Part shown: positions 12,328-27,509 of the stretch, piece after piece | How the letters are laid out: each line of letters begins with the position of its first letter | How positions within the stretch are numbered: the stretch's first letter is position 1 | NCBI GenBank assembly: GCA_000004985.1 | Contig: GG738852.1 | Origin: Naegleria gruberi | Lineage: Eukaryota | Reading direction: 5' to 3' (one strand) | DNA length: 64,000 nt | The notes under the pieces: model-generated | Databases searched by the model: none | What the model was told of the DNA's origin: nothing | What the model saw: the letters and a program-made list of their open reading frames with translations, nothing else | Program-made: the position numbers and the translations under genes

Positions 12328-12963
12328 ATGACCTTTTCCAATAACCTAATCATTCACGTTCATTATGATCACCAACAACAATACCAGAACAATAATCATT
12401 CTTTTCAAGAAGAAGAAATTAAACAATCGGAATCTATTCCATATCATGCAATTTTAACTTTTAATGGAAAACAATATAAATGTAGTGTTGGAAGAAATGG
12501 AATCAATCAAAAGGTTGGTGAGGGCGATGGAATTACACCCATTGGAGAATATTCATTGAGAATGGCCTTTTACAGATCAGATAGGGTTGATCCATCAATT
12601 ATTTCAAAAATTAAAGGAATTCCTCTTATTGAATTGAAAGAAAATTATGGTTGGTGTGATGATATGTTAGATTCACTGCATTACAATAGATTAATACAGC
12701 TTCCTGTATTGGAAGGATTATCGAGTGAAAAATTGTGGAGACAAGATCATTTGTATGACCTTTTTGCAGTAATAGGTTATAATGATAATCCAATTCAATT
12801 AGGAAAGGGAAGTGCAATCTTTTTCCACATTGCATCTGAAAATTATGGACCAACTTCAGGATGTGTTGCCATGCAGAGGGATGATTTAATTGAAGTATTT
12901 TCTAAATTGACTGCCTTTACCATTTTGAAAATTTCACAATCCTCTTATCCTTATCTGAAATAA
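12328..12963 (+). CDS. L,D-transpeptidase (YkuD/ErfK-family) domain protein, intronless, bacterial-type
   Basis: ATG at 12328 in ataaaaaATGa context. ITPIGEYSL and FFHIASENYGPTSGCVAMQRDDLIEVF match the YkuD His ... Ser-x-Gly-Cys-(V/I)-(R/A)-M catalytic signature. Confidence 0.6.
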   Translation: MTFSNNLIIHVHYDHQQQYQNNNHSFQEEEIKQSESIPYHAILTFNGKQYKCSVGRNGINQKVGEGDGITPIGEYSLRMAFYRSDRVDPSIISKIKGIPLIELKENYGWCDDMLDSLHYNRLIQLPVLEGLSSEKLWRQDHLYDLFAVIGYNDNPIQLGKGSAIFFHIASENYGPTSGCVAMQRDDLIEVFSKLTAFTILKISQSSYPYLK

Positions 12964-13008: not shown

Positions 13009-13916
13009 TTAATCTTGATATTGCTTTTGAACAACTTGGGAATCACCATGTTTCAAAAGTTCAACATCACCTTCCACCATTCCTCTAACTAATTCATCAA
13101 AGCTGACATTTCTCTTCCATCCTAATTCAGTTTCAGCCTTGGTTGGGTCACCAATCAAGAGTTCAACTTCAGTTGGTCTAAAGTAACGTGGGTCAACCTT
13201 AACTCTGACAACACCATCAACAACACCATGTTCATCAACAGTACCTGGAGTACCCTTCCATTCAACCTTCTTACCGAGAACAGCAAATGATTTTTCAACA
13301 AATTCTCTAACTTTGTGTTTTTCACCAGTGGCAACACAATAATCGGCTGGCTTTTCTTGTTGGAGCATCAACCACATGGCTTCAACATAGTCCTTAGCAT
13401 GTCCCCAATCTCTTTCAGCATCCAAATTACCCAAATACAAGCAATCTTGCAATCCGAGATGAATACGAGCAACAGCCATAGTAATCTTTCTTGTAACAAA
13501 GGTTGGACCACGACGAATACTTTCATGATTGAAAAGAATTCCGTTCAAAGCAAACATATTGTAAGCTTCTCTATAGTTGATAACAATCCAATAACTGTAC
13601 AACTTGGCGCAAGCATATGGAGAACGTGGATAGAATGGAGTGGTTTCTTTTTGTGGAATTTCTTGAACTAAACCATACAATTCACTAGTACTAGCTTGAT
13701 AGAATCTAGTCTTCTTTTCCAATCCACAAGCACGAATGGCTTCCAAAATACGCAAAGTACCAATACCATCAACATTGGCAGTGTATTCAGGCATTTCAAA
13801 ACTGACTTTAACATGGGATTGAGCACCCAAGTTGTAGATTTCATCTGGTCTAATCTTGGAAATGATGGAAATCAAGTTTCCGGTATCAGTCAAGTCACCA
13901 TATAAAAGTTTGAATT
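13009..13916 (-). CDS. GDP-mannose 4,6-dehydratase, exon 2
   Basis: [54 protein letters not shown] and ASTSELYG...[12 protein letters not shown] are near-identical to human GMD. Acceptor aatcag ends at 13917. Confidence 0.85.
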
Positions 13917-14028
13917 CTGATTAATTATTATTATTAATCAAATAAATTAAATCATCAAAAAAGATCAAAATAATTATCATCACAAAGGATTAAAATTGTT
14001 AGCGTGAATCACGACAAAAATTACTTAC

Positions 14029-14311
14029 TAGCCTTGGTGATGTGAATATCCTTATACAAATGTTCAACTCTACCAGTGTTGAATGATGAAGAACGTCTAA
14101 TCATACCATAGACAGTATATCCCTTTTCTAACAAGAGTTCAGCCAAGTAGGATCCATCTTGACCAGTTACACCAGTAATCAAGGCAACTTTAGAGTCGTG
14201 TTCTTGGATTGGAATTTGGGTAATGTCGACTGGTGTTGGTTCGCTCATTTTTTTATTGTCAGTGCTTCTGTTGTTTTCCAACAGTGTCGAAAAAACATCA
14301 ACGGTAACCAT
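14029..14311 (-). CDS. GDP-mannose 4,6-dehydratase, exon 1
   Basis: Rossmann motif [24 protein letters not shown]. Donor gtaagt at 14028-14023, phase 1. Intron 13917-14028 is 112 nt. ATG at 14311. An alternative A-rich-context ATG at 14248 gives MSEPTPV. Confidence 0.8.
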
Positions 14312-14767
14312 ACAAAATATTCACAGAAGAAAATAAGGAATGGAAGTGGAAGTTGTTTACGATACATGGTTTGTATTAGGAACAATGAAGAGGTTGGTCA
14401 ATTGGTTTAATAATTTTGAATATTGTTGAGAAGAATCTTTGTCATTTTCTCATTCTCGGTAAATTTCCCTATTTATTTGTTTTCTCGTTAAGAATATTGT
14501 CAAAGATTAGGCGAAGTTTAATATTACACAAGAGTGGTAAAATTCAAGGTCAGACAATAAAGCGTTTCTTGATCACTGCTTATGCTACATTTCTTAGATG
14601 TCCTTAACTTTTGATTCATCATATTAGCTGTTGAACCTAACCATCCGGCCTTTTCCTGTTCTCATATTTTTTGAACAGCAAAATTGCGGTTTTTAAAATT
14701 TATTAAATATTTAATACGTGTGTGCTGGAATAATTCCTAGAAGTTAAATAAATCTGGATTTTATTGC

Positions 14768-16089: not shown

Positions 16090-19000
16090 TTACAATCTAT
16101 TTGAAGCACCACCACAAGTATTTCTCATAATAATTGATTCAGATGAAACACCTGGACCGAAAGCAACAGCAATAGACCATTCATTATTGAGATATTGTTG
16201 AGTTCTTCTATATAATTCCATTACAAACATAATGGTAACAGAGGACATGTTACCATATCTTGTCATGATATCCCATGAGGCCTTCAAATCTTCACGATTC
16301 ATTGTCAATGCCTTTTCAACTGCATACAAGATTGCCTTACCACCTGGGTGAGCCAAAACATTACAATTTTCCTTCAAAACAATTTCATCCTTGTGTTGAG
16401 ACTTCTTCAACAAGGTATTAATGTAATCCTTGAGTGAGTTGGTAATGATTTGTGGAACTTCAGGTGACAAGCTCAAGTGGAAACCATCATGGAAAACTTT
16501 CCATGTCATGCATTCATCAGTATTTGGAGTAGTGTAAGAGTGAGTATCGAATAATTCATAAACAGGTTTTTCACCCTTTTGAGCTTGTGGTTGAGAACCA
16601 ACAACCATTGAGGCAACACCATCACCAAAGATGGCACTAACAATCTTTTCATCAGTATTATTGGAAATTCTAAAGTGAACAGATGACAATTCAATACAAA
16701 TGACCAAAACTCTATTCTTTGGATTGAGAGAAGTCAAAGCACGAGCAGCCTTCAAAGTAATCAAACCAGCAGCACATCCTGACATGTTGATTGGGAAATA
16801 TTCAACAGCGTGAGACAATCCAAGTCTATCCATAAACTTCAAGTGAATATTTGGAACAGCAATACCAGTTGAGGTACAAGTAATGAGGTGAGTAATTTCC
16901 TTAACATCACCCTTCCATTCATCAATGGCCTTAGAAGCAGCTTGATAAGCCAATTCTGGGGCAACCTTCAAGAAGATATCATTTCTACTTTCAATAGTCT
17001 TCAAATCATTGGTAGAATTCTTGGTAAAATCGAAAGCAACACATCTTTCCTTAATTTCACAGCCCTTGAACAAGTTGTGAATTCTTTCCTTGATCTTTTC
17101 GTCAGCAGTTCCGTAATCCTTCATGATACCTTCGAAGAGTTCTTCTTGAGTCTTTCTTGGAGGATTGGCAACACCAATACCAAGAATGTAAGCATTGCTT
17201 GGGTTCTTCATGTTGGCCTTTCTGGCATGAGCAGCAAATTCCTTAACTGGAACACTTTCAGGAACAACAGTCTTAGTGAGTGGAGTGTTATCAGTGGTGG
17301 TAGTAGTGACTGTTGTGGTAGCAGTAACAACTGGAGTTTGTTGAGCGACAACAGGTTTTGGTTGTTCAGCAACAACTGGTTTTGGTTGAACTGGAGTAGC
17401 AGCAGAGGCAACAGCAGTTGGAGTAGCAGTCTTGGTTTGCTTGGCTGGTTCAGATTTTTTAGAAGTCTTAGATTCCTTCTTTTCAGATGAAGCAGCTCCC
17501 ATCTTGTCCATAATCTTAGCAGCAAGTGACTTGACAGTTGTGTCCTTCTTCAAGATATCAATGGTTGTGATTGAACCACGAGGATACATCTTATCCAACC
17601 AGTTCTTCAATTGAGTAGCCATCAAAGAGTCCATACCGTATTGTCTGAGTGGTTCAGCAATTTCAATAGCTTCTAATGGAATACCCAAAATCTTGGCCAA
17701 TTGAGTGGCAATCATTTGATCGACAGTTAATTGAGAAGTAGAAGCATCCATACCAGCATCTTGAGCAGTTTCAATAAACAATTCACCGAACATCTTCTTC
17801 AAATGCTTAAAGTTATCAGAGTGATCCTTCCAATCAATACAACTGATAATCTTTTGTGGTTGAGCATCAGTTTGTTGAGAAATCAATGCCTTTTCAAGAC
17901 ATTTAACCAAGAGTGGAATTGGCATAGAAATGAAACCTCTTGATCTCAAAATAACCTTAGTTGAGTATTGTCTTGAAACAAAACCATCATCAATGGCACC
18001 AAAGTTAACACTCAATGCTGGTAAATTCTTTGACTTTCTGTAGTGGGCAAGAGCATCCAAAATACAATTGGCAGCAGCATAATTGGATTGTTCCATATTA
18101 CCATTGATAGCAACAAAGCTGGAGAACATGACAAAATATTTGATAGAGTTTTCATTCAAAGTAGCATGGTGAACATTCCAAGCAGAAACAGCCTTAGCTT
18201 GAATGACATTGTTGAACTTGGTTTCAGTCATGTTATTGATGGAACAATCTTCATATACAGTAGCAAGATGGAAAACTGATTCCAATGGTGGCATATTCAA
18301 AGTGGTACGAACTTGAGTAATGATATTTTCAACATTTTGTCTGTTAGAAACATCACATGGCAAAACTTGAATATTCAAAGAAGAGTCAGTCTTGATCAAT
18401 TCTTCAATTCTATCCTTTGATTGACCTTCAGTCAATTTACCACTTCTTGAGAGAATGACTAAATTCTTAACTTGCTTTTGTTCAATGAGCCATAAAACGA
18501 GGGACAAACCAACACCACGAGTACCACCAACAACCAAATGAGTCTTGTCAGAAGAGAAGGTCAATCCACGCATTTCTTCCTTCAATTTTTCATATCTTGG
18601 AATGGAGGTTTCCAAATCTTCATTGGTCATGTTGAGGACAATCTTACCAATGTGCTTGGCATGAGCCATAAAATTGAAAGCATCATGAAGCTTTTCCTTA
18701 TCATAGACAACATATGGCAATGGGAAGAGTCTCTTTTGCTCCATCAAATCCATAACTTCTCTGAACATTTGTTGAACAAGTTCTGGCTTTTCGTCCATCA
18801 TTCTGTCCAAATCAACTGAGGCATAGGTCAAGTTACGATGCATTTGTTGCAAATTGACACAAGTACCATCATAGATATCTCTAATACCAATTTCGACAAA
18901 TCTACCATATGAACCCAATGATTCAAAGTTGGCAGACAACATATCAGTACCAGCCAAAGAGTTCAAAACAACATCACAACCCTTTCCATTAGTGAATTTC

Positions 19001-22000
19001 ATAACATCATCACGGAAACTAGTTGAACGAGAATCAGTAGTGTAATGAACCTTATAGGTTTCATCTTGTTCCAAGAAGGTTCTCTTCTCACCACGACCAG
19101 CTGTACCAATGGTGACGGCACCAAAGTGATTAGCAATTTGAACAGCAGACAACCCAACAGCACCAGCTGCAGAGTGAATCATACAGGTTTCTCCCTTTCT
19201 CAATCTGGCAACATGAACCAAACCATACCATGAAGTCAAGAAGGCAGATGGAATAGTTGAAGCTTGTTCGTAGGACATCCAATCTGGTTTCTTAATAGCG
19301 AGACTTGACTTGACATTGACATAGGATGAGAAACATTTTCTAGCAATACAGACAACCTTATCACCAATCTTAAAGTCAGTAACAGATGGGCCAACTTCAA
19401 CAATGACACCAGAACATTCCAAACCGAATGGTGGATTCCATTTACCACCTCTTCTAAAAGCCTTATCTGGAATTCTACCCAATGAGAACATTAAATCCTT
19501 GAAACTCAAAGCAGAAGCCTTAACTGAAATTCTAACTTCATCAGCTTCAAGTGGAACAAATTCTTCAACTTCATGGAATGACAATTCACTAACTGAACCA
19601 ATTGAGTTGGACTTTAAGGTAACTGGAGCGTTTGGCTTTTGAATCAATGTTGATTTGACAACCTTCAAATACTTCAAGTCACCACAAGCAGCTAAAGCCA
19701 ATTCGTTATATTCCAAATTGTCACAATTTACAAAGAGGTTAGAAATAGTTTGGGAAGCAATGTCCATGTTGATACCTTCAGAGAAATCGAACAAGAAACT
19801 CTTAATGTTTGGATGTTCACTTCTGAAAGTTCTACCAATACCAACAAATTGAGCAGATGATGGAACAGAGTAGGTGAGTTGAGCACCCTTGGTGACAATC
19901 CACAATTTAGTTTCACATGATTCATGGTCAAGTTCAATCTTGATCATTTCCTTAATAATTTGCATCAATCTCCAAGAGTTGGATTCTTGAGTGACTTGAT
20001 TATCTTCAGCAACGTTAGCAACAAACACAATACCAGAAATTTCTTGATTTTGAGCGAGCATGTTAACAGCTTGTTCAGCAGAAACAATTGTAGTAGAAAC
20101 AGCAGACAAGGAAGAGACAACAGCCTTGGTCATGTCAGATTCAGCAACATCAGAGACAACAATCCATTGTTGAGCAACAGATTGTTCTTCTTGTTCGACT
20201 GGAGCAGTCATTTCAGTCAATTCTTCCTTATTGGCGGAAGTCCAAGCAACATCATACATACAATCATTAGAAGTAATGGTAAAGACAGTTGGACAAGATG
20301 CTTGAGTAATAGCTCTACACTTGACGCACAAGAATGAAGCAATTGGAACAATAGAACCTTGCTTGTGGCCATAAATAAAGACGTCACCTTCAAGTTCATA
20401 TTGAGATTGATTAGTCATCTTGCAGTAAACTGAAATACTATCCATGTCTGGGACCAATTGGTTCAAACAAACTTCAGTATTCAAAACACAAGTATCAATT
20501 GAAGATGGAATGTATACGATAGCATCTTCTTCAGCAATAGCGATCAATGATTGCAAACAAGAATCCAAAATACCAACTTCCAAAACAGACTTGTGTCTCT
20601 TAGTATCCAAGAGACTCTTTGGTCCTTCATCGAATTTCTTCTTCAATGACAATTCACTGACACCTTCATTCTTACCAACATAAATCTTATCCAATTGTTG
20701 GAAAACTGGACCATATTCAAGACCCATCTTTCTCAATTTAGAGTAGAGTTCATTCTTTGACATTGAGACTTCCATGCAACGTGGCTTGACTTCATCCAAG
20801 TTTGGATGAGTCTTTAAATTGGTTGGTGGCAACATTCTCAAGAAACACTTATAGTGATCGAGCCAATCTTCCAAACCTCTCTTACTCTTAATTTCAATCA
20901 TTTGACTATTTTGAGTTCCGTGAACTAATGGAGTAACATCAGTTTCAACAATGAAACCACCTGGTGCAGTTTGAGATAAGGATAGAGCACCCTTAAAGTC
21001 ACATCCTTGCAAAATGAATTGCTTTGGAAGTTCCTTTTGTTCAGAGTCCTTTTCATTAGCTCTGATTTGAGCAACAGCAGCGTGGAGAGACATTAAAACA
21101 TAGGAAACACCTGGATAAATGATATCACCTTGAATAACGTGATCCTTCAAGTTAGGGAAGTGATCCAATGAAATTCTATTTTGGAATGTAACACTACCAG
21201 ATCTCAAACTCTTGTGTCCAACCAAATTAGATGGATAACCTCTTCTCCATTCAGCAGCTTGTTCTTCAGTTTGATTCCAAATCATTTGACTTCTATCCCA
21301 TGGGTAGAATGGAACTTTAACCTTATTGAAAAGGTGATTCCAGTTGACATTTTCTCTGAAGGTAACATTGTGAATGAATCCATTGACGAATAAATCTCTA
21401 GCACATTGGAGCATAGTTTCTTGTTCATCAACGAAACGCTTCAAAGTAAAGTAACACTTGGTATCTTCAATACCCAATTCAGAAGCACATTCCTTAATGG
21501 AAGCAGCAAGAACTGGATGAGGACTCAACTCAACAAATCCTCTGTAACCTTGTTTTAACAAATCAGTAATTGGATCAGCAAAGAGAACAGCTTGTCTAAC
21601 ATTACCCCACAAATAGTGTTCATCCATATTTTCAACAGTGGTATCATACAATTTACCAGTAACAGTAGAGTAGAGTGGAATGAGGGTTGGTTTACCACGG
21701 CTGACTGGTGAGAAATTCTTCAAAGCATTCAACATTTCTTCCTTAATTGGTTCTTGATATTGAGAGTGGAATGCACAATAACCTCTCAACTTTCTACAAA
21801 AGACTCCCTTACCCTTGGAAATATCTTGTTCCAACTTGTTAATGAGTTGAGGAGAACCAGCCAAAGTACATGATCCAGGACCATTGATAGCAGCAACAAC
21901 AACAGCAGAACGATCTTCACCACTCAAATATTCATCCAAGTAGAGTTCACATTGAGCTGGAGAGACACCAACAGCCAACATGTTACCAGATCCACAGGTC

Positions 22001-24066
22001 TTTTCTTGCAAGGTACTTCTCCAATACAAGATGGTAATGGCTTCTTCCAAAGTATAGACACCAGCAGCATAGGCACTACCAACTTCACCAGCAGAGTGAC
22101 CAACAACGACAGATGGATGAATATTCCAAGCTTTCATCATGGCATATAAACCAGCTTGGAGGAAGAAGATAGCTGGTTGAGCATAGAGTGGGTGATCCAT
22201 ATCATCATCAGTTAAACATTGTTCCTTAATCCACTTTCCAACAAGAGACCATCCAGACAATTGACTGAACAATCTATCACATTCATCCAAACAATTTCTG
22301 AAAATTTCATACTTGTTATAGAGTTGGATACCCATGGATTTAGTTTGTGGACCTTGACCTGGGAAGACAAAGACGAATCCCTTATCACTTCTATTTGAAT
22401 TATGTACAATACCCTTAGATCTAAGAGTATCAGCAGATTCGGATGCAATTGTCTTCAATTGTTTGACACAATCTTCAACAGAGCTAGTAATGATAGTACT
22501 TCTCAATTTGTGATGAGATCTAAATTGATTTTGAACAGTAAAGACATCAATCATAGAATCCTTATCATGGATACATTCCTTGCTTGATAAATCTTGAGCA
22601 AGACTTTGGAGGGATGGAATGGATTGTGCAGACAACATCATCATGACCTTTTCGCTTTCCTTTTCTGGCAATTTTGGTGCTTCCAACTTTGGTTGCTCGA
22701 ATTCTTCCAAAATGACGTGAGCATTGACACCACCAATACCCATAGAGTTAATACCAAAGACCAATGGCTTGGAACCTCTCTTCTTAACCAATGGAATTGG
22801 TTCAGTAACAACTCTCATATTATACTTATCCAATGGAATCTTTGGATTCAACTTTTTAATATTGGCAACTGGACATAAGAGTCTCTTTTCCATCATGAGA
22901 ACAGCCTTAATTAAACCAGCGACACCAGATGCACATTCCAAGTGACCAATATTACCCTTAACAGAACCAACATAGATTGGTTTGGATCTATTTGGACCGG
23001 AGAGAACTTCACCAATGGCAACAGTTTCAACAACGTCACCCTTAGCAGTACCAGTACCGTGACATTCAACATAATCAACTTCGAATGGTGACAAGATACT
23101 AGCAGTTTCTTCTGGTAATCTATCATAAGCTTTCTTAATATTCAAAGCTTGAGTAATTGAGGAAGGAGTGATCAAAGAATCTTCAGCAGCACCATCAACA
23201 TTGACACTTGAACCACGAATGACACCATAAATACGGTCACCACTTTCAAGAGCCTTCTTCAATGGCTTTAAAACAACTAAACCAGCACCTTCACCTCTAA
23301 CGAAACCGTTGGCAGATTCATCGAATGGTTTACACTTACCATCCTTTGATAAAACACCAACTTTACTAAACTCGCAATAAGGAGATGGAGAAAGGATTAA
23401 AGAGACACCACCTGCAATAGCCATTTCACACTCATTATTCTTCAAGCTCATACATGCTTGATGAACTGCAACGAGAGAAGATGAACAAGCAGTATCAATA
23501 CTCATAGATGGACCTCTAAAATCATAGAGGAATGAAATACGGTTAGAGGCAATACTCAAAGTATTACCATTGTGAGTGTATGAAGTAATTCTTTCAAAAT
23601 TATTGTTATCCAATTGAACAGTGTAAAAGTCCAATTGACCAATACCGATAAAGACACCAGTTTCATCGAACAAATGACCATTTGTGCTATCTTTCTTTGG
23701 TCTAATACCAGCATCTTCTAAACATTCCCATGTTAATTCTAAAAGTAAACGTTGTTGTGGATCCATAACTTCCACTTCTTTTTGACCAACACCCAAAACA
23801 CTACAATCGAAAGCCTTGATTTGATCCTCGGGTATGTAAGCACCACGAGATGAAGACATTAATCCAGGAACATTGGAAGCATCAGTAGATTCCCAATTTT
23901 GAGATTTCCATCTCCATTCAGGTGTATCGGTAATGTGTTCTTGGCATTCAGTGAGGAGCTTCCAAAATTCGTGCTTATCTTTAGCTCCAGGTAAACGACA
24001 GGAAAGACCAACAATGGCATAACTGTCAGCAGTGATATGATTGTGATTATTTGTAGTTGTAGACAT
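16090..24066 (-). CDS. Steely-type hybrid polyketide synthase: type I KS-AT-DH-ER-KR-ACP fused to a C-terminal type III (chalcone synthase-like) PKS domain
   Basis: Single 8-kb ORF. First ATG at 24066-24064 (MSTTTNNHNH). The ORF-track start at 24102 is TTG. KS: DTACSSSLVA, ECHGTGT, GNIGHLECASG. AT: GHSAGEVGSAYAAGV, YCAFHSQ. DH: HVIQGDIIYPGVSY. ER: HSAAGAVGLSAVQ. KR: VVGGTRGVGLS, NYAAAN. ACP: GMDSLMATQL. P/T-rich linker. Type III domain: NMSGCAAGLITLKAARAL, LAHPGGKAILYAVE, YGNMSSVTIMF (Cys-His-Asn triad). The line labels place the stop at 16089-16091, a 1-nt discrepancy with the track. Confidence 0.9.
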   Translation of the reverse strand: MSTTTNNHNHITADSYAIVGLSCRLPGAKDKHEFWKLLTECQEHITDTPEWRWKSQNWESTDASNVPGLMSSSRGAYIPEDQIKAFDCSVLGVGQKEVEVMDPQQRLLLELTWECLEDAGIRPKKDSTNGHLFDETGVFIGIGQLDFYTVQLDNNNFERITSYTHNGNTLSIASNRISFLYDFRGPSMSIDTACSSSLVAVHQACMSLKNNECEMAIAGGVSLILSPSPYCEFSKVGVLSKDGKCKPFDESANGFVRGEGAGLVVLKPLKKALESGDRIYGVIRGSSVNVDGAAEDSLITPSSITQALNIKKAYDRLPEETASILSPFEVDYVECHGTGTAKGDVVETVAIGEVLSGPNRSKPIYVGSVKGNIGHLECASGVAGLIKAVLMMEKRLLCPVANIKKLNPKIPLDKYNMRVVTEPIPLVKKRGSKPLVFGINSMGIGGVNAHVILEEFEQPKLEAPKLPEKESEKVMMMLSAQSIPSLQSLAQDLSSKECIHDKDSMIDVFTVQNQFRSHHKLRSTIITSSVEDCVKQLKTIASESADTLRSKGIVHNSNRSDKGFVFVFPGQGPQTKSMGIQLYNKYEIFRNCLDECDRLFSQLSGWSLVGKWIKEQCLTDDDMDHPLYAQPAIFFLQAGLYAMMKAWNIHPSVVVGHSAGEVGSAYAAGVYTLEEAITILYWRSTLQEKTCGSGNMLAVGVSPAQCELYLDEYLSGEDRSAVVVAAINGPGSCTLAGSPQLINKLEQDISKGKGVFCRKLRGYCAFHSQYQEPIKEEMLNALKNFSPVSRGKPTLIPLYSTVTGKLYDTTVENMDEHYLWGNVRQAVLFADPITDLLKQGYRGFVELSPHPVLAASIKECASELGIEDTKCYFTLKRFVDEQETMLQCARDLFVNGFIHNVTFRENVNWNHLFNKVKVPFYPWDRSQMIWNQTEEQAAEWRRGYPSNLVGHKSLRSGSVTFQNRISLDHFPNLKDHVIQGDIIYPGVSYVLMSLHAAVAQIRANEKDSEQKELPKQFILQGCDFKGALSLSQTAPGGFIVETDVTPLVHGTQNSQMIEIKSKRGLEDWLDHYKCFLRMLPPTNLKTHPNLDEVKPRCMEVSMSKNELYSKLRKMGLEYGPVFQQLDKIYVGKNEGVSELSLKKKFDEGPKSLLDTKRHKSVLEVGILDSCLQSLIAIAEEDAIVYIPSSIDTCVLNTEVCLNQLVPDMDSISVYCKMTNQSQYELEGDVFIYGHKQGSIVPIASFLCVKCRAITQASCPTVFTITSNDCMYDVAWTSANKEELTEMTAPVEQEEQSVAQQWIVVSDVAESDMTKAVVSSLSAVSTTIVSAEQAVNMLAQNQEISGIVFVANVAEDNQVTQESNSWRLMQIIKEMIKIELDHESCETKLWIVTKGAQLTYSVPSSAQFVGIGRTFRSEHPNIKSFLFDFSEGINMDIASQTISNLFVNCDNLEYNELALAACGDLKYLKVVKSTLIQKPNAPVTLKSNSIGSVSELSFHEVEEFVPLEADEVRISVKASALSFKDLMFSLGRIPDKAFRRGGKWNPPFGLECSGVIVEVGPSVTDFKIGDKVVCIARKCFSSYVNVKSSLAIKKPDWMSYEQASTIPSAFLTSWYGLVHVARLRKGETCMIHSAAGAVGLSAVQIANHFGAVTIGTAGRGEKRTFLEQDETYKVHYTTDSRSTSFRDDVMKFTNGKGCDVVLNSLAGTDMLSANFESLGSYGRFVEIGIRDIYDGTCVNLQQMHRNLTYASVDLDRMMDEKPELVQQMFREVMDLMEQKRLFPLPYVVYDKEKLHDAFNFMAHAKHIGKIVLNMTNEDLETSIPRYEKLKEEMRGLTFSSDKTHLVVGGTRGVGLSLVLWLIEQKQVKNLVILSRSGKLTEGQSKDRIEELIKTDSSLNIQVLPCDVSNRQNVENIITQVRTTLNMPPLESVFHLATVYEDCSINNMTETKFNNVIQAKAVSAWNVHHATLNENSIKYFVMFSSFVAINGNMEQSNYAAANCILDALAHYRKSKNLPALSVNFGAIDDGFVSRQYSTKVILRSRGFISMPIPLLVKCLEKALISQQTDAQPQKIISCIDWKDHSDNFKHLKKMFGELFIETAQDAGMDASTSQLTVDQMIATQLAKILGIPLEAIEIAEPLRQYGMDSLMATQLKNWLDKMYPRGSITTIDILKKDTTVKSLAAKIMDKMGAASSEKKESKTSKKSEPAKQTKTATPTAVASAATPVQPKPVVAEQPKPVVAQQTPVVTATTTVTTTTTDNTPLTKTVVPESVPVKEFAAHARKANMKNPSNAYILGIGVANPPRKTQEELFEGIMKDYGTADEKIKERIHNLFKGCEIKERCVAFDFTKNSTNDLKTIESRNDIFLKVAPELAYQAASKAIDEWKGDVKEITHLITCTSTGIAVPNIHLKFMDRLGLSHAVEYFPINMSGCAAGLITLKAARALTSLNPKNRVLVICIELSSVHFRISNNTDEKIVSAIFGDGVASMVVGSQPQAQKGEKPVYELFDTHSYTTPNTDECMTWKVFHDGFHLSLSPEVPQIITNSLKDYINTLLKKSQHKDEIVLKENCNVLAHPGGKAILYAVEKALTMNREDLKASWDIMTRYGNMSSVTIMFVMELYRRTQQYLNNEWSIAVAFGPGVSSESIIMRNTCGGASNRL

Positions 24067-25664
24067 TCTTTGATCTATATGGTTGTTATCGTGACTATAC
24101 AATTGATTAATTGATCAAAGTGTTTGTGTTGTTGTATATAGATTCTCTATATAATGTTTTGGGTTGATTTTGTGTCTTTTTTTCAGACTTGCAATTTGTC
24201 TAAGGTGGCCTTGCAGTTCTCTTAAAGGTTCAAATTTGAGTACTATGCTGAAGTGTGCTATTGTGACACAAAAATTGAAACTAGCTGTTGTTGTGGAGAG
24301 TCCTCTCTCTTCGAATCAACATTCAACATCTCTCTCCTTTCTTACATCACCAGCACACAGAAAGTAGAGTGCTCTCTCTTGAGGAATCAACAACATTGCT
24401 GTTGATGATATTCATGAAGAATCTGAAAAGATCTTTTGCCAACAACCATCCACTTGGTTAAAAGAAAGTTTGAGGAATCAAATGTTAACTTTTGAGTGAA
24501 AGAAGGCACTTCTTCTCGGCATTTTCCAGAAATCAACGGACACTTTGGAATAAATTCACCGTACATGTAGGCCATTTCTATCGAGTATTTGATAGTTCCA
24601 AATTGCTGGAATGTTTGAAATTCCAAATCAGCAATTGGGTTACGATCAAATTTCTAAATTTTTCAAGCTGTATTTTGCTTCTTAATACCTTACTGTAAGT
24701 TTGAATTGCATTTTCAATGTGTTTCTTAATGAAGTGTGCAGTGGGTCATTGCAATAAGGAGTAATCGATAGAGTTACTACTAGTCGATTGAAAAGATAAT
24801 TTAAGGAACTTAATATCCTTCCTCCCATTCATATTAACAGATAACAAGACAGATCATATATTGGCTCATATTGCATTAATACTAAACAGTAAGCGCTGAT
24901 GCTTCAAGTTGTTTTTACAGCCATTGGTACACTGCAAAGGAATATAGGGCAGAACTTTCATATTGATGGTTCTCTTGAAGCTTCATATGATTGAAAGGTT
25001 CTTCATCCAGCAACACCTCATCATCAGAAAGCATAATATTCATGATTATTAATCATTCAATGTCCTCTCAACGTCCACGTTTCTTTTATAGATTAAATTC
25101 CAATCCTAGAAGCCAATACAAATCATGCTTATTGTATAGAAATTTATTGTAATTTTCTATTGCGTTCCGATAATAATAAAAGATAATCACACTATTCAAC
25201 TTTAAATTTTCGAAAGCATAGAATACAGCCCACCATTTCAATGCATTCTTTATTCTGTGCCTGAACCTGTGTGACAACCCAATTTTGTACAGACACTTTG
25301 AATTTTCCTGTGAATTGGACATAAAACTTGATGTGCGATTGTATACTATTTGAGGATTGTTAGATATGGAATCAACAAAGATAAGTGGTAATTATCTGGC
25401 TGCAATTATGTTAGAAAAAATGTCTCAATCTCTTACACTTGTATTCTTGTGAAACCTTAATGAAATCAGAGCATGAATCAACAAATTTATTAAAATAATA
25501 ATAAAAAAATTGTCAAATAATACCTCTTAAATGTTGATCATATTTGAACCCATTTTACATTCTCTTTATATTCAAAACTTTTCATCCCTAAAGTAAAAGT
25601 GAAAATTAACTTTACACCTGCTATTCAAAAATTTGCTTGAAAGTAAAAAAAATTGAATTAAAAA

Positions 25665-27509
25665 ATGAGTGAAGTGAAAAGAACCCCAAAAGCCTTCAAG
25701 TCATTGGCCACTGCTCCATCTTCTTCGGATGAACCATCTTCATCAATAAATACACCAAAGAAAACACCATCTTCATCAACCAAATCCACACCAGCAAAAC
25801 AAACAACAATACTAGCAAAATCTACACCAGCAAAACAAACCCCAAAAAAGAAGGAACAATCCGATAATGTAGTAGAAAAAACCACTCCATCAACTAACAC
25901 CACCACACCAAAGGAGAAACGTAAACAAACAGAACAAAAACAATCGGCAACAAAGAGAAAGTTTTCCGAAACTGATCTCGAAAAAGAATCAACAACAATA
26001 GAACAACAAGAATCAACAAAAACCACCACTGTTGATGATATCAATACTGTTGGTGATAACAAGGCTGACTCATCTGTTATTGATACATCAATTTCATTTG
26101 CTTCTCTTGGACTTTCACAGGTTTTATGTGATACATTGAAGGAAATTGGATATAAACACCCAACCAAAATTCAAAGAGAAGTTATTCCAGTTGCCATCAA
26201 GGAAGCATTCCATGACGATGAAACTGGATTTACTAAATATAATGATATTATTGGTATTTCTGAAACAGGTTCTGGTAAGACTGCTTCCTATGTTTTACCA
26301 GTTCTGGAAAGACTTTTACAATTGAAAGGTGATCCATCACCATGTAGTGCTCTTATTTTAGCACCAACAAGAGAATTGGCTGTACAAATTCAAGGACACG
26401 TAAATGCATTAGGTAGTAAGATTGGTATCACTTCAACAACCTTAACAGGTGGTACAAGCATTGCCAATGATTCTTTGCGTTTCAAGAAGAATAGATATCA
26501 CGTAGTTGTTGGTACTCCTGGAAGAGTTTGTGACTTGTTAGAATTCGGAAAGAGTAATTTCAATTTGAATCATACTAGATTTTTAGTTTTGGATGAAGCT
26601 GACAAAATGTTGGGATCTGAATTTGACAAGTGGCTCACTACCATTTCTGAAAAATTGAGAAGAAAACAATGTACAGTCTACTTGTTCAGTGCAACCATGA
26701 CTACCAAGATTGACAAACTCTTAAAATTGCATCAAATGACTAATCCTGTAAAAATTCAAGTCACAAGCTCAAAATACCACACTGTCGATACACTCACTCA
26801 ACAATACCTACTCTTACCTGAAAAGTATAAGGAACAATATTTAGTATATTTACTCAATGAAAATCCTGGAAAGAGAATATTAGTTTTTGCTGGACAAAAC
26901 TCAACATGTATCTTATTGAGTATTTTATTGAGATCTCTCAAATTCCCTACAGTTCCACTTTCTGGACATATGGACGAAACTCACAGACAACATTGTCTTA
27001 GAAAATTCGTATCTGGTGATAGACCAATTCTTGTTGCTACTGATATTGCTGCTAGAGGTTTGGATATTCCTCTCGTAGATATTGTTATTAATTTTGATAT
27101 TCCAGTTCACTCTAAGGAATACGTTCACCGTGTAGGTAGAACTGCTAGAATTGGTAATCAAGGTCTTGCTGTCACTTTTGTTACTCAATACGATTTACAA
27201 TATTTCCAAAAGATTGAAGCTCTCATTGAAAAGAAGATGGATGTCTGTAATGTTAATAAGGAAAATGCAATGCTCTTAACAAATACTGTTTCACAAGCAT
27301 TGAAATTGGCCAAGAAGAAGATGTCTGACATGGAAAAGGGTGATATGGCTGTCAAATCTGATGAATTTACCGAAGAAGAAGAAGTTTTGAACAATGCCAT
27401 TAGATCTCTTTCAGCTAAGAGAGCTGGTGCCAAGTCAAGTGGTAAAGGATCATCCATGGCTAGTAGTGGACCAGGTAATCAAAAGAAGAAGAGAAAGCAA
27501 CAAAAATAA
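25665..27509 (+). CDS. DEAD-box ATP-dependent RNA helicase (DDX47/Rrp3-like) with K/T/S-rich N-terminal extension
   Basis: Q-motif ...HPTKIQREVIP. ETGSGKTASYVLPVLERL. VLDEADKML. FSATMT. HRVGRTARIG. C-terminal KKKRKQQK. Confidence 0.85.
   Translation: MSEVKRTPKAFKSLATAPSSSDEPSSSINTPKKTPSSSTKSTPAKQTTILAKSTPAKQTPKKKEQSDNVVEKTTPSTNTTTPKEKRKQTEQKQSATKRKFSETDLEKESTTIEQQESTKTTTVDDINTVGDNKADSSVIDTSISFASLGLSQVLCDTLKEIGYKHPTKIQREVIPVAIKEAFHDDETGFTKYNDIIGISETGSGKTASYVLPVLERLLQLKGDPSPCSALILAPTRELAVQIQGHVNALGSKIGITSTTLTGGTSIANDSLRFKKNRYHVVVGTPGRVCDLLEFGKSNFNLNHTRFLVLDEADKMLGSEFDKWLTTISEKLRRKQCTVYLFSATMTTKIDKLLKLHQMTNPVKIQVTSSKYHTVDTLTQQYLLLPEKYKEQYLVYLLNENPGKRILVFAGQNSTCILLSILLRSLKFPTVPLSGHMDETHRQHCLRKFVSGDRPILVATDIAARGLDIPLVDIVINFDIPVHSKEYVHRVGRTARIGNQGLAVTFVTQYDLQYFQKIEALIEKKMDVCNVNKENAMLLTNTVSQALKLAKKKMSDMEKGDMAVKSDEFTEEEEVLNNAIRSLSAKRAGAKSSGKGSSMASSGPGNQKKKRKQQK

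Follow-up and report, generated by a model that had tools for sequence, protein, structure and literature searches.

The window analyzed here is the whole stretch of DNA under study, 64,000 nucleotides of contig GG738852.1 from the Naegleria gruberi assembly GCA_000004985.1. Its minus strand contains an unbroken open reading frame (16090..24102), in which the first ATG, at 24066, opens a protein of 2658 aa with zero internal stops, as had been described in an earlier reading made from the letters alone (the sequence-only reading), which named no strand. The protein is a 100% match to N. gruberi (NEG-M) XP_002680948.1 / D2V518, an entry which carries the annotation "beta-ketoacyl synthase" only. 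Eight domains follow one another in order along this 8-kb frame, which therefore cannot be of chance origin. The features of the locus, with the sources of each assignment, are listed below.

16090..24066, minus strand: hybrid type I/type III polyketide synthase (PKS) coding sequence, complete, single-exon, 2658 aa plus stop (ORF list, translation, Pfam, protein identity)
22858..24018, minus strand: ketosynthase (KS), aa 17-403; Cys194, His336, His375 (PF00109, PF02801; motifs)
22495..22848, minus strand: KS C-terminal extension / KS-AT linker domain, aa 407-524 (PF16197)
21385..22374, minus strand: acyltransferase (AT), aa 565-894; GHSAG Ser658, Arg683, CAFH 764-767, malonyl-type xAFH (PF00698; motifs)
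20362..21207, minus strand: dehydratase (DH), aa 954-1235; His976 (HxxxGxxxxP), Asp1168 (DxxxQ) (PF21089, PF14765; His976 read from the translation)
19597..20361, minus strand: psiKR, the KR structural subdomain, previously termed a spacer, aa 1236-1490 (profile search; mycocerosic acid synthase alignment)
18622..19596, minus strand: enoylreductase (ER), aa 1491-1815; NADPH motif AAGAVG at 1633 (PF08240, PF00107, PF13602; motif)
17977..18543, minus strand: ketoreductase (KR) catalytic subdomain, aa 1842-2030; GGTRGVG at 1847, Tyr1996 (PF08659; motifs)
17470..17745, minus strand: acyl carrier protein (ACP), aa 2108-2199; phosphopantetheine Ser2147 in GMDSL (PF23297, PF00550; motif)
17212..17469, minus strand: ACP-to-type-III linker, Pro/Thr/Val/Lys-rich, aa 2200-2285 (translation, composition)
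16093..17211, minus strand: type III PKS, chalcone-synthase-like, aa 2286-2658; Cys2431, His2573, Asn2606 (PF00195, PF02797; PDB 2H84)
24067..25664, no strand assigned: divergent intergenic region of 1598 bp, common to the hybrid PKS and DEAD-box helicase genes, presumed promoter region (ORF/tRNA/Rfam scans)
25665-27509, plus strand: DEAD-box helicase gene, divergently transcribed from the hybrid PKS gene

The order of the Pfam matches (KS-AT-DH-ER-KR-ACP-Chal_sti_synt_N/C), all of which score far over the gathering cut-offs, agrees with the architecture proposed from the letters, namely a reducing type I synthase joined in cis to a type III PKS, the latter covered by Chal_sti_synt_N (2286-2493) and Chal_sti_synt_C (2512-2649). 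In the type I half, the Pfam matches themselves extend over DH 954-1199, ER 1508-1811 and KR 1842-2026. A motif scan, combined with a CHS-numbered mapping, reveals complete catalytic residues in both halves (KS, AT, DH, KR, ACP and the Cys-His-Asn triad of the type III domain), and the motifs quoted earlier were all recovered: GCAAG (Cys2431), HPGG (His2573) and GNMSS (Asn2606) in the type III domain, and YCAFHSQ in the AT. In the AT motif CAFH takes the place of the canonical HAFH; it is of the xAFH type, not the methylmalonyl-type YASH, and the malonyl-type assignment is upheld. The region between DH and ER had been regarded as a non-catalytic spacer of about 300 aa. Such a region exists, at ~255 aa, but it is simply psiKR, with no unexplained insert: its profile matches the stretch that immediately precedes ER in the modular PKS of bacteria and in dictyostelid PKS, and the alignment of mycocerosic acid synthase begins at aa 1383, within psiKR, and continues through ER-KR. 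A hidden or degenerate C-methyltransferase (C-MeT) inside this spacer was considered and rejected, as the spacer maps to psiKR and has no methyltransferase match. Over the entire protein, Pfam yields no methyltransferase family at E<0.01, in line with the absence claimed earlier, and no thioesterase or other release domain. The ACP-type III linker includes a 24-nt tandem repeat at 17326-17389. At 2658 aa, the protein is indeed smaller than the Dictyostelium enzymes, exemplified by the D. discoideum StlA of 3147 aa (P0398).

The gene-free upstream region of 1.6 kb described previously is confirmed, as the gap at 24067-25664 has neither tRNA genes nor Rfam matches, and its ORFs do not exceed 79 aa. 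Developmental regulation, with which the sequence-only reading had found this gap consistent, would be conjecture. The divergent arrangement of the hybrid PKS and DEAD-box helicase genes recurs in N. lovaniensis. When the 1.6 kb upstream of the gene in the two species were compared by blastn in search of conserved promoter sequence, no similarity was detected. The neighboring genes code for a metallophosphatase, GMD and further housekeeping functions; no tailoring gene (halogenase, O-methyltransferase, P450 or prenyltransferase) appears within ~15 kb, consistent with the earlier view of the neighbors.

Colinear orthologues of the hybrid PKS occur in N. fowleri (79% identity), Willaertia magna (69%) and N. 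lovaniensis, and the ACP-type III fusion is kept in all vahlkampfiid orthologues. The W. magna gene is a single exon too, flanked by eukaryotic genes, at a locus which is not syntenic with the N. gruberi window. The catalytic domains are 67-90% identical among the species versus 17-41% in the ACP-type III linker, and dN/dS relative to N. lovaniensis is 0.08-0.16 across DH, ER, KR, ACP and the type III domain, figures which are approximate, with dS near saturation (about 1). Purifying selection has conserved the gene in both Naegleria and Willaertia. The N. lovaniensis assembly has it spread over four frame segments, and the three breaks, if they are not assembly errors, could be signs of decay in that species. 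The relatives of the type III domain come from an exhaustive HMMER search; a word-index search with this domain alone missed Naegleria and Willaertia proteins of 76-85% identity and returned only short, mostly stand-alone bacterial or metagenomic type III PKSs, one of them a 413-aa ACP-type III fragment. The feature is probably a functional nuclear gene of N. gruberi which encodes a Steely-type hybrid polyketide synthase.

By its alignments, the type I half is a compact, fully reducing, MAS-like PKS without a C-methyltransferase region. The NCBIfam Pks2 model aligns colinearly with it, residues 17-2189 corresponding to model positions 5-2084 of 2086, yet the score is 857 bits against a family cut-off of 2400, and the protein is not an orthologue. 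The closest PDB match over psiKR-ER-KR is mycocerosic acid synthase. The DH-to-ER region of 255 aa contrasts with the 650-700 aa found in 18 dictyostelid proteins, where methyltransferase domains occupy it in all StlA orthologues and in several other dictyostelid PKS/FAS. The short form (~255-300 aa, psiKR only) is common to the Naegleria, Willaertia, P0243, P0286 and L003 hybrids.

The type III domain has a different set of relatives. Its best solved relative is Steely1/StlA (PDB 2H84, E 8e-79, ~36% identity), compared with 2e-52 for plant STS. The identity of about 36% between Naegleria and StlA compares with 62-78% among StlA orthologues, and NJ trees resolve the vahlkampfiids and StlA as two distinct clades, each at 100%. 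The two appear to belong to a wider clade together with T. lacteum P0258 and the metagenomic P0243, P0245 and P0248 (85% bootstrap among 78 taxa), which is recovered with the addition of P0121 among 264 taxa (62%); these trees are NJ only and represent Steely by StlA, and resolution within the clade is poor (21-61%). StlB has no representative in the 150 best-scoring hits of the Naegleria type III domain (down to ~150 bits) and is therefore more distant than StlA. A search with full-length StlA returned StlA orthologues and non-hybrid dictyostelid PKS/FAS, and no StlB.

Residue mapping places the gatekeeper at Phe2480 and pocket residues at His2464, Trp2522, Leu2531 and Met2520. The pocket equals that of StlA at CHS positions 132S, 133T, 197H, 215F, 254M, 256W, 265L and 338S and differs from it at five positions (A165, S194, V211, G216 and F263). 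The changes relative to CHS (T197H, G256W, F265L/M and I254M) are common to StlA and related bacterial type III PKSs, e.g. P0150, and the bacterial relatives with this pattern include ones annotated in public databases as alkylresorcinol/alkylpyrone synthases. This pattern is tied to the alkylresorcinol/alkylpyrone product class but does not prove the product. Taken in isolation, the type III domain of StlA forms pyrones in vitro, although the in vivo product is a resorcinol; similarity of the pocket therefore predicts cyclisation chemistry poorly.

The suggestion that the protein is a divergent paralogue of Dictyostelium Steely has to be abandoned, as its source, N. gruberi (Heterolobosea, Discoba), belongs to another supergroup. 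The likeness to Steely is borne out for the type III half only; the type I half has the compact MAS-like form, and its KS, AT and ER are placed beyond the dictyostelid PKS/FAS family to which the StlA domains belong. Nor, in the comparison with StlA, does the type III domain fall inside a Steely orthologue group with an identical pocket, the outcome that the sequence-only reading had set against its own proposal.

The fusion may well have been built independently of Steely, with a chance approaching even, by joining a MAS-like PKS to a type III PKS of StlA's amoeba-associated lineage, in which case the architecture would be convergent. In NJ trees of KS, AT and ER, StlA nests among the dictyostelid PKS/FAS proteins (bootstrap 100, 96 and 100, respectively), and its KS groups with non-hybrid Heterostelium PKSs (80). 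Naegleria and the metagenomic hybrid P0243 fall outside the dictyostelid clade in the first two trees, and the ER tree puts them on the side of the bacterial enzymes (93). The lengths of the DH-to-ER region, 650-700 aa in dictyostelids versus ~255-300 aa in Naegleria-type hybrids, also argue for separate construction, as do ACP-to-type-III fusions in Percolomonas, Acrasis and metagenomes, whose upstream modules are quite different; such fusions therefore arise repeatedly. Nevertheless, the Naegleria and StlA type III domains appear to share the clade described above, and KS and AT place the Naegleria hybrids as sister to the dictyostelid family (79 and 61) instead of scattering them among bacteria, in trees which are NJ only and sample neither animal, fungal nor other Naegleria PKSs.

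Alternatively, the Naegleria and Steely enzymes could share a single hybrid ancestor, of great age or else passed on by eukaryote-to-eukaryote transfer, with the dictyostelids having later gained C-MeT or swapped type I parts with resident PKSs. Such a single origin is conceivable, if on the unlikely side. The type III clade consists of amoebal (Dictyostelia, Vahlkampfiidae) and metagenome sequences only, at least two of the metagenomic members being Steely-type hybrids (P0243, from JGI 3300062347, and P0248 on L003, from ENA ERZ26165376); in the midpoint-rooted KS tree the hybrids (P0286, then Naegleria with P0243) come off immediately outside the dictyostelid PKSs; and the best non-vahlkampfiid match of the ACP is D. 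purpureum StlA, albeit weakly (37 bits versus 24 or less for others). The ER tree disagrees, however, and the type I domains of StlA are closer to non-hybrid dictyostelid PKSs than to Naegleria. The poor resolution inside the type III clade, in a comparison drawn with StlA, likewise weighs against it.

A broader proposal, which we advance only tentatively, is that Steely-type fusions are not a dictyostelid invention but a widespread class among amoeboid protists, ancient or spread by eukaryote-to-eukaryote transfer. The compact Naegleria form, devoid of a methyltransferase, would then perhaps be nearer to the ancestral state of the expanded dictyostelid PKS family, and its product might be a conserved phenolic lipid or signal in differentiation or encystment. 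If this were true, the pathogen N. fowleri would possess a pathway without a known human counterpart. The class would span Vahlkampfiidae (Discoba), Dictyostelia (Amoebozoa) and at least three AT-rich, probably eukaryotic metagenome lineages.

Whatever the origin of the fusion, the two halves probably operate as a single assembly line. The mechanism is inferred by precedent from the Steely/StlB and Azotobacter ArsA-D systems. The malonyl-specific AT would load malonyl units, and KS, KR, DH and ER would use them iteratively to lengthen a saturated acyl chain that the ACP bears on Ser2147. Direct in-cis delivery of this chain to the type III Cys2431 is proposed because no thioesterase is present and the fusion is conserved; the type III domain would then add two or three malonyl-CoA units and cyclise the product. 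By analogy, the most likely product would be an unmethylated 5-alkylresorcinol or alkylpyrone, predicted because of the StlA-like pocket (His197, Trp256, Leu265, Met254) and the lack of a C-methyltransferase, and an acylphloroglucinol would be less likely. Its biological role, whether as a secreted signal, as an antimicrobial or as a phenolic lipid which the cells produce when they encyst, is a guess.

It is improbable, by comparison, that the halves are not an assembly line at all, the type III domain being cut off at the linker and using free acyl-CoA, and the type I half being otherwise employed, e.g. as a source of fatty acids. Cleavage of StlB in stalk cells, which frees its chalcone-synthase domain in active form (Saito et al. 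2022, PMC9489281), provides a precedent for this, and the Naegleria linker is long, of low complexity and poorly conserved; yet, as neither a thioesterase nor another release domain is present in the type I half, its only visible off-loading route is the fused type III domain, and the fusion persists in every vahlkampfiid orthologue. An artefact (bacterial contamination, mis-joined genes or a pseudogene) is scarcely credible, despite the intronless gene, the bacterial-like type I half and the frame breaks in N. lovaniensis, as the gene sits amid eukaryotic genes within a 939-kb N. gruberi scaffold, with flanking genes likewise identical to N. gruberi proteins, its GC content (38% vs 33-35% in the flanks) is ordinary for coding sequence, dN/dS is about 0.1 and the fusion is continuous in three further species, though frame-shifted in N. 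lovaniensis; this reading, contamination and chimeric assembly included, is effectively refuted.

The literature search, which left subscription journals outside its scope, found no report of a Steely-type enzyme outside Dictyostelia and, for polyketides or type III PKSs of Naegleria, Acrasis and Heterolobosea, no earlier report of this gene. The Dictyostelium enzymes have been called "two unique hybrid PKSs" (PNAS 2025, PMC12625978). The Steely-type design, formerly believed to be Dictyostelium-specific, is conserved in Naegleria, N. fowleri included, and in Willaertia. It provides a second, leaner example from another supergroup, on a MAS-like scaffold without a methyltransferase region, which would be useful for engineering; StlB is already in use for cannabinoid precursors. 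Whether type I/type III assembly lines originated repeatedly or spread among protists becomes a testable question. Naegleria, Willaertia and the brain-eating N. fowleri would produce the predicted polyketide, which could serve in signalling, defence or cyst formation. Humans are not known to have type III PKSs, and the pathway could therefore be a selective target or marker.

Among known systems, StlA (Steely1) shares with the Naegleria enzyme a single polypeptide of the order KS-AT-DH-...-ER-KR-ACP, with a C-terminal type III PKS which replaces the thioesterase. StlA differs in belonging to Amoebozoa rather than Discoba, in its size (3003-3335 aa) and in a DH-to-ER region of ~650 aa with methyltransferase domains (PF08242, PF13489), where Naegleria has psiKR only; its KS, AT and ER are also members of the dictyostelid PKS/FAS family, unlike those of Naegleria. 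StlB, the DIF-1 precursor synthase, resembles the Naegleria protein in overall hybrid design, and by its accepted mechanism the fused type III domain takes its starter, an acyl-ACP, from the type I half (Saito 2022, PMC9489281). The same mechanism is proposed here for the Naegleria hybrid, and a scan of the neighboring genes found neither a chlA-like halogenase nor a dmtA-like methyltransferase beside it. The mycobacterial MAS/Pks2 enzymes resemble the type I half in their compact, fully reducing KS-AT-DH-psiKR-ER-KR-ACP organization with no pseudo-methyltransferase, but MAS-like enzymes work with methylmalonyl-CoA and lack a fused type III PKS, whereas the Naegleria enzyme combines a malonyl-type AT with one. 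A carrier protein directly upstream of the type III domain, as in Naegleria, is found in P0388 of Percolomonas cosmopolitus, P0250 of Acrasis kona and the metagenomic P0293 and P0270, yet their upstream module is non-reducing (FAAL-ACP-KS-AT-MT-ACP) and their type III domains belong to a clade other than that of Naegleria. Both P. cosmopolitus and A. kona are also heterolobosean. In the ArsABCD system of Azotobacter vinelandii, a type I FAS passes an ACP-bound saturated acyl chain directly to type III PKSs, which supply the cyst envelope with its alkylresorcinols and alkylpyrones; the acyl chains are very long. This system is thus a functional analogue in a cyst-former, although it is bacterial and its components are separate proteins which act in trans.

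The hybrid polyketide synthase (PKS) gene of N. gruberi occupies one minus-strand ORF, 16090..24102 if counted from the first TTG, and from the first ATG at 24066 it encodes 2658 aa with no internal stop, exactly the uninterrupted length claimed in the sequence-only reading. An exact-sequence look-up identifies the product as N. gruberi NEG-M XP_002680948.1 (EFC48204.1, D2V518), publicly annotated as "beta-ketoacyl synthase" and nothing more; its domain composition could be seen in public databases from 2010 on. The order of the Pfam domains, every one of which scores far over its gathering threshold, bears out the type I/type III architecture proposed from the sequence, and each motif quoted at that time (YCAFHSQ, GCAAG, HPGG, GNMSS) was located.

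Domains, catalytic residues and linker repeat of the hybrid PKS
aa 17-403, KS, with catalytic Cys194, His336 and His375
aa 407-524, KS C-terminal extension
aa 565-894, AT, with catalytic Ser658 and Arg683 and the motif YCAFHSQ
aa 954-1199, DH, with catalytic His976 (read off the translation) and Asp1168
aa 1508-1811, ER, with the motif AAGAVG
aa 1842-2026, KR, with the motif GGTRGVG and Tyr1996
aa 2108-2199, ACP, with the phosphopantetheine serine Ser2147
aa 2200-2285, ACP-to-type III linker, rich in Pro, Thr, Val and Lys, with a short tandem repeat
17326-17389 (minus strand), the 24-nt tandem repeat of the linker, encoding QPKPVVAE twice
aa 2286-2493 and 2512-2649, two halves of a chalcone/stilbene synthase fold, with the triad Cys2431 (GCAAG), His2573 (HPGG) and Asn2606 (GNMSS)

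A Pfam scan of the whole protein found neither a thioesterase nor a methyltransferase, the latter in keeping with the lack of a C-methyltransferase noted from the sequence.

The locus is not a biosynthetic gene cluster: its neighbours in the window (HDAC, GMD, metallophosphatase, DEAD helicase, disulfide oxidoreductase, Polo kinase, USP and enolase) are housekeeping genes, and the sequence-only reading had already judged the metallophosphatase and GMD not to look like tailoring genes. On either side, the metallophosphatase and the DEAD-box helicase match N. gruberi proteins exactly, and both share one 939-kb scaffold with the hybrid PKS. The upstream gap, described earlier as 1.6 kb and gene-free, measures 1598 bp; it is longer than most of the intergenic gaps in the window, which is gene-dense, and holds neither an ORF >79 aa nor a tRNA or Rfam match. 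The PKS gene and the helicase, labelled probable eIF4A in UniProt, are divergently transcribed across a spacer of about 1.6 kb both in N. gruberi (window 24067-27509) and in N. lovaniensis (contig PYSW02000016.1, 3285-6622); blastn finds no similarity between the two spacers, these species differ in their downstream neighbours, and the Willaertia locus has no synteny with the window. Elsewhere in the window, a 211-aa ORF (12328-12963, plus strand) on this nuclear scaffold contains a YkuD L,D-transpeptidase domain of bacterial type (Pfam E 5e-11) and may have been horizontally acquired; its exact sequence is absent from the protein collection, so that a public gene model is either absent or different. 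The GDP-mannose 4,6-dehydratase ORF (13009-13893, minus strand) starts at profile position 61 of 332, which implies an upstream N-terminal exon across an intron, inside the 13894-14767 gap.

Full-length, colinear orthologues are present in N. fowleri (2702 aa, 79% identity) and Willaertia magna (2626 aa, 69%), the latter as a single uninterrupted exon among typical eukaryotic genes. The N. lovaniensis orthologue (PYSW02000016.1, 6626-14764) is annotated as two adjacent genes, of 1000 aa (KS-AT) and 1591 aa (DH to type III), and falls by tblastn into four frame segments, hence three apparent frameshifts, which reflect either long-read indel error or gene decay in that species. Identity between species is 67-90% in the catalytic domains and 17-41% in the linker, which also differs in length and sequence. 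Against N. lovaniensis, with dS near saturation, dN/dS is 0.08-0.16 for DH, ER, KR, ACP and type III, 0.22 for the spacer between DH and ER and 0.37 for the linker. Contamination, mis-assembly and a pseudogene are rejected for the N. gruberi gene by its conserved orthologues, domain conservation, low dN/dS and scaffold context.

Among solved structures, the type III domain best matches D. discoideum Steely1/StlA (2H84, E 8e-79), followed by plant stilbene synthase (2e-52). Homologues were collected by searching 1.84 billion representative proteins exhaustively with HMMER, followed by name look-up. After the vahlkampfiid orthologues, the top match is P0243, a metagenomic hybrid of 2467 aa, at 294 bits and 43% identity; the StlA proteins of D. 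purpureum and Cavenderia fasciculata score 261 and 252 bits at about 36-37% identity, and a 392-aa metagenomic protein, P0245, is among the best matches, listed after StlA. The best 150 matches include no StlB-sized protein apart from the StlA representatives, which places StlB farther from the Naegleria domain. A neighbour-joining (NJ) clade unites Naegleria and Willaertia with seven StlA orthologues, a Tieghemostelium type III PKS, P0243, P0245 and metagenomic P0248, with bootstrap values of 85% (78 taxa) and 62% (264 taxa, the metagenomic sequence P0121 joining the clade) and no resolution of the branching order within it.

Pocket residues, in alfalfa CHS2 numbering
Naegleria type III: S132, T133, V137, A165, S194, H197, V211, F215, G216, M254, W256, F263, L265, S338
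StlA, same 14 positions in order: S, T, I, L, C, H, A, F, A, M, W, W, L, S

The two pockets have the signature substitutions T197H, G256W, F265L and I254M in common, yet are unlike at 165, 194, 211, 216 and 263, with a conservative change at 137. The Naegleria domain is thus StlA-like, but it is not an StlA orthologue and its pocket is not the same; membership of a Steely orthologue group with identical residues, which the sequence-only reading had named as counting against it, was not found with respect to StlA.

The type I half, by contrast with the Steely enzymes, appears to be of another kind. The DH-to-ER distance is 650-700 aa in 18 of 18 dictyostelid PKS/FAS proteins examined, including all examined StlA orthologues, and StlA has methyltransferase Pfam domains in this interval; the distance is about 255 aa in Naegleria, Willaertia and P0243. 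The spacer profile matches the part of bacterial modular PKSs and dictyostelid PKSs that directly precedes ER, and in a PDB comparison mycocerosic acid synthase aligns with the protein from residue 1383 onward through ER and KR; both results identify the spacer as the KR structural subdomain (psiKR). KS-AT resembles bacterial modular PKSs (CurL, PikA, DEBS) and D. discoideum Pks16 about equally, and animal FAS less. In NJ trees, the StlA KS, AT and ER lie inside the dictyostelid PKS/FAS grouping (bootstrap 100, 96 and 100), whereas Naegleria and P0243 are sister to that entire clade in KS (79) and AT (61) and fall on the bacterial side in ER (93). Shared ancestry of the Naegleria and Steely fusions is favoured by the type III tree, and independent assembly or domain replacement by the type I trees and domain layout. 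The "divergent paralogue" first suggested is not borne out, the gene belonging to Naegleria.

Three more compact Steely-type hybrids without a methyltransferase occur in metagenomes:
L003 1269-9128 (ENA ERZ26165376)
L002 2020-9423 (JGI 3300062347)
P0286 (ENA)

Contigs L002 and L003 have 35-37% GC; the former, which carries P0243, is AT-rich with few called genes. The L003 hybrid is fragmented and adjoins fragmented ABC-transporter genes, suggesting an intron-bearing eukaryote or a noisy assembly; P0248 represents the ACP and type III portion of this fragmented Steely-type gene. A second kind of carrier-protein-to-type III (T3) fusion is represented by P0388 of Percolomonas cosmopolitus (2570 aa, FAAL-ACP-KS-AT-MT-ACP-T3), P0250 of Acrasis kona (683 aa, ACP-T3) and the metagenomic P0293 (FAAL-ACP-KS-MT-ACP-type III). 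The first two are from Heterolobosea, and their type III domains group together, separate from the Naegleria/StlA clade. In Cymbomonas tetramitiformis, a predicted 4818-aa protein (KAK3233920.1) contains type III PKS domains in a tandem series of twelve and is either a merged gene model of a tandem array or an unusual multi-domain protein.

What is seen in Naegleria is a complete reducing module, maintained by selection, whose last domain is an ACP; it lacks any release domain, and a complete type III PKS follows on the same polypeptide. By its architecture the protein qualifies as a Steely enzyme, and it is predicted to work like one. Handover of an acyl group to a type III PKS has a precedent in the Azotobacter Ars system, and it is from this and the Steely precedent (Saito 2022, PMC9489281) that we infer the mechanism. 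The malonyl-type AT (xAFH) would supply an iterative KS-KR-DH-ER cycle yielding a saturated acyl-ACP; the acyl group would pass to Cys2431, and the type III domain would extend it with malonyl-CoA units and cyclise the chain. Cleavage of the linker, as in StlB, is also possible. With a pocket like that of StlA and no C-methyltransferase, the tethered enzyme is expected to make an unmethylated alkylresorcinol or alkylpyrone or, less probably, an acylphloroglucinol; sequence alone gives neither the chain length nor the cyclisation mode.

In the literature searchable without subscription, nothing was found that ties Naegleria, Acrasis or Heterolobosea to Steely, type III PKS or chalcone synthase, and the Naegleria pangenome paper counts 16 PKSs and says nothing further of them. 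Steely enzymes are unreported outside slime moulds according to Steely specialists (Saito 2022, PMC9489281) and have been called unique (PNAS 2025, PMC12625978). ACP-to-type III PKS fusions are more diverse than has been recognised. The point of interest is an intact, conserved Steely-type enzyme in Naegleria, Willaertia and protists seen in metagenomes, with a type I scaffold of a different kind. Three tests of descent speak against placing it in the dictyostelid Steely family: its host is not one of the Dictyostelia, Naegleria belonging to Heterolobosea within Discoba; the hybrid PKS lies outside the StlA orthologue group, with StlB more distant; and the dictyostelid type I scaffold is absent from it. 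Its residues 17-2189 are instead colinear with the NCBIfam model of Pks2, a mycobacterial synthase of the mycocerosic acid synthase type.
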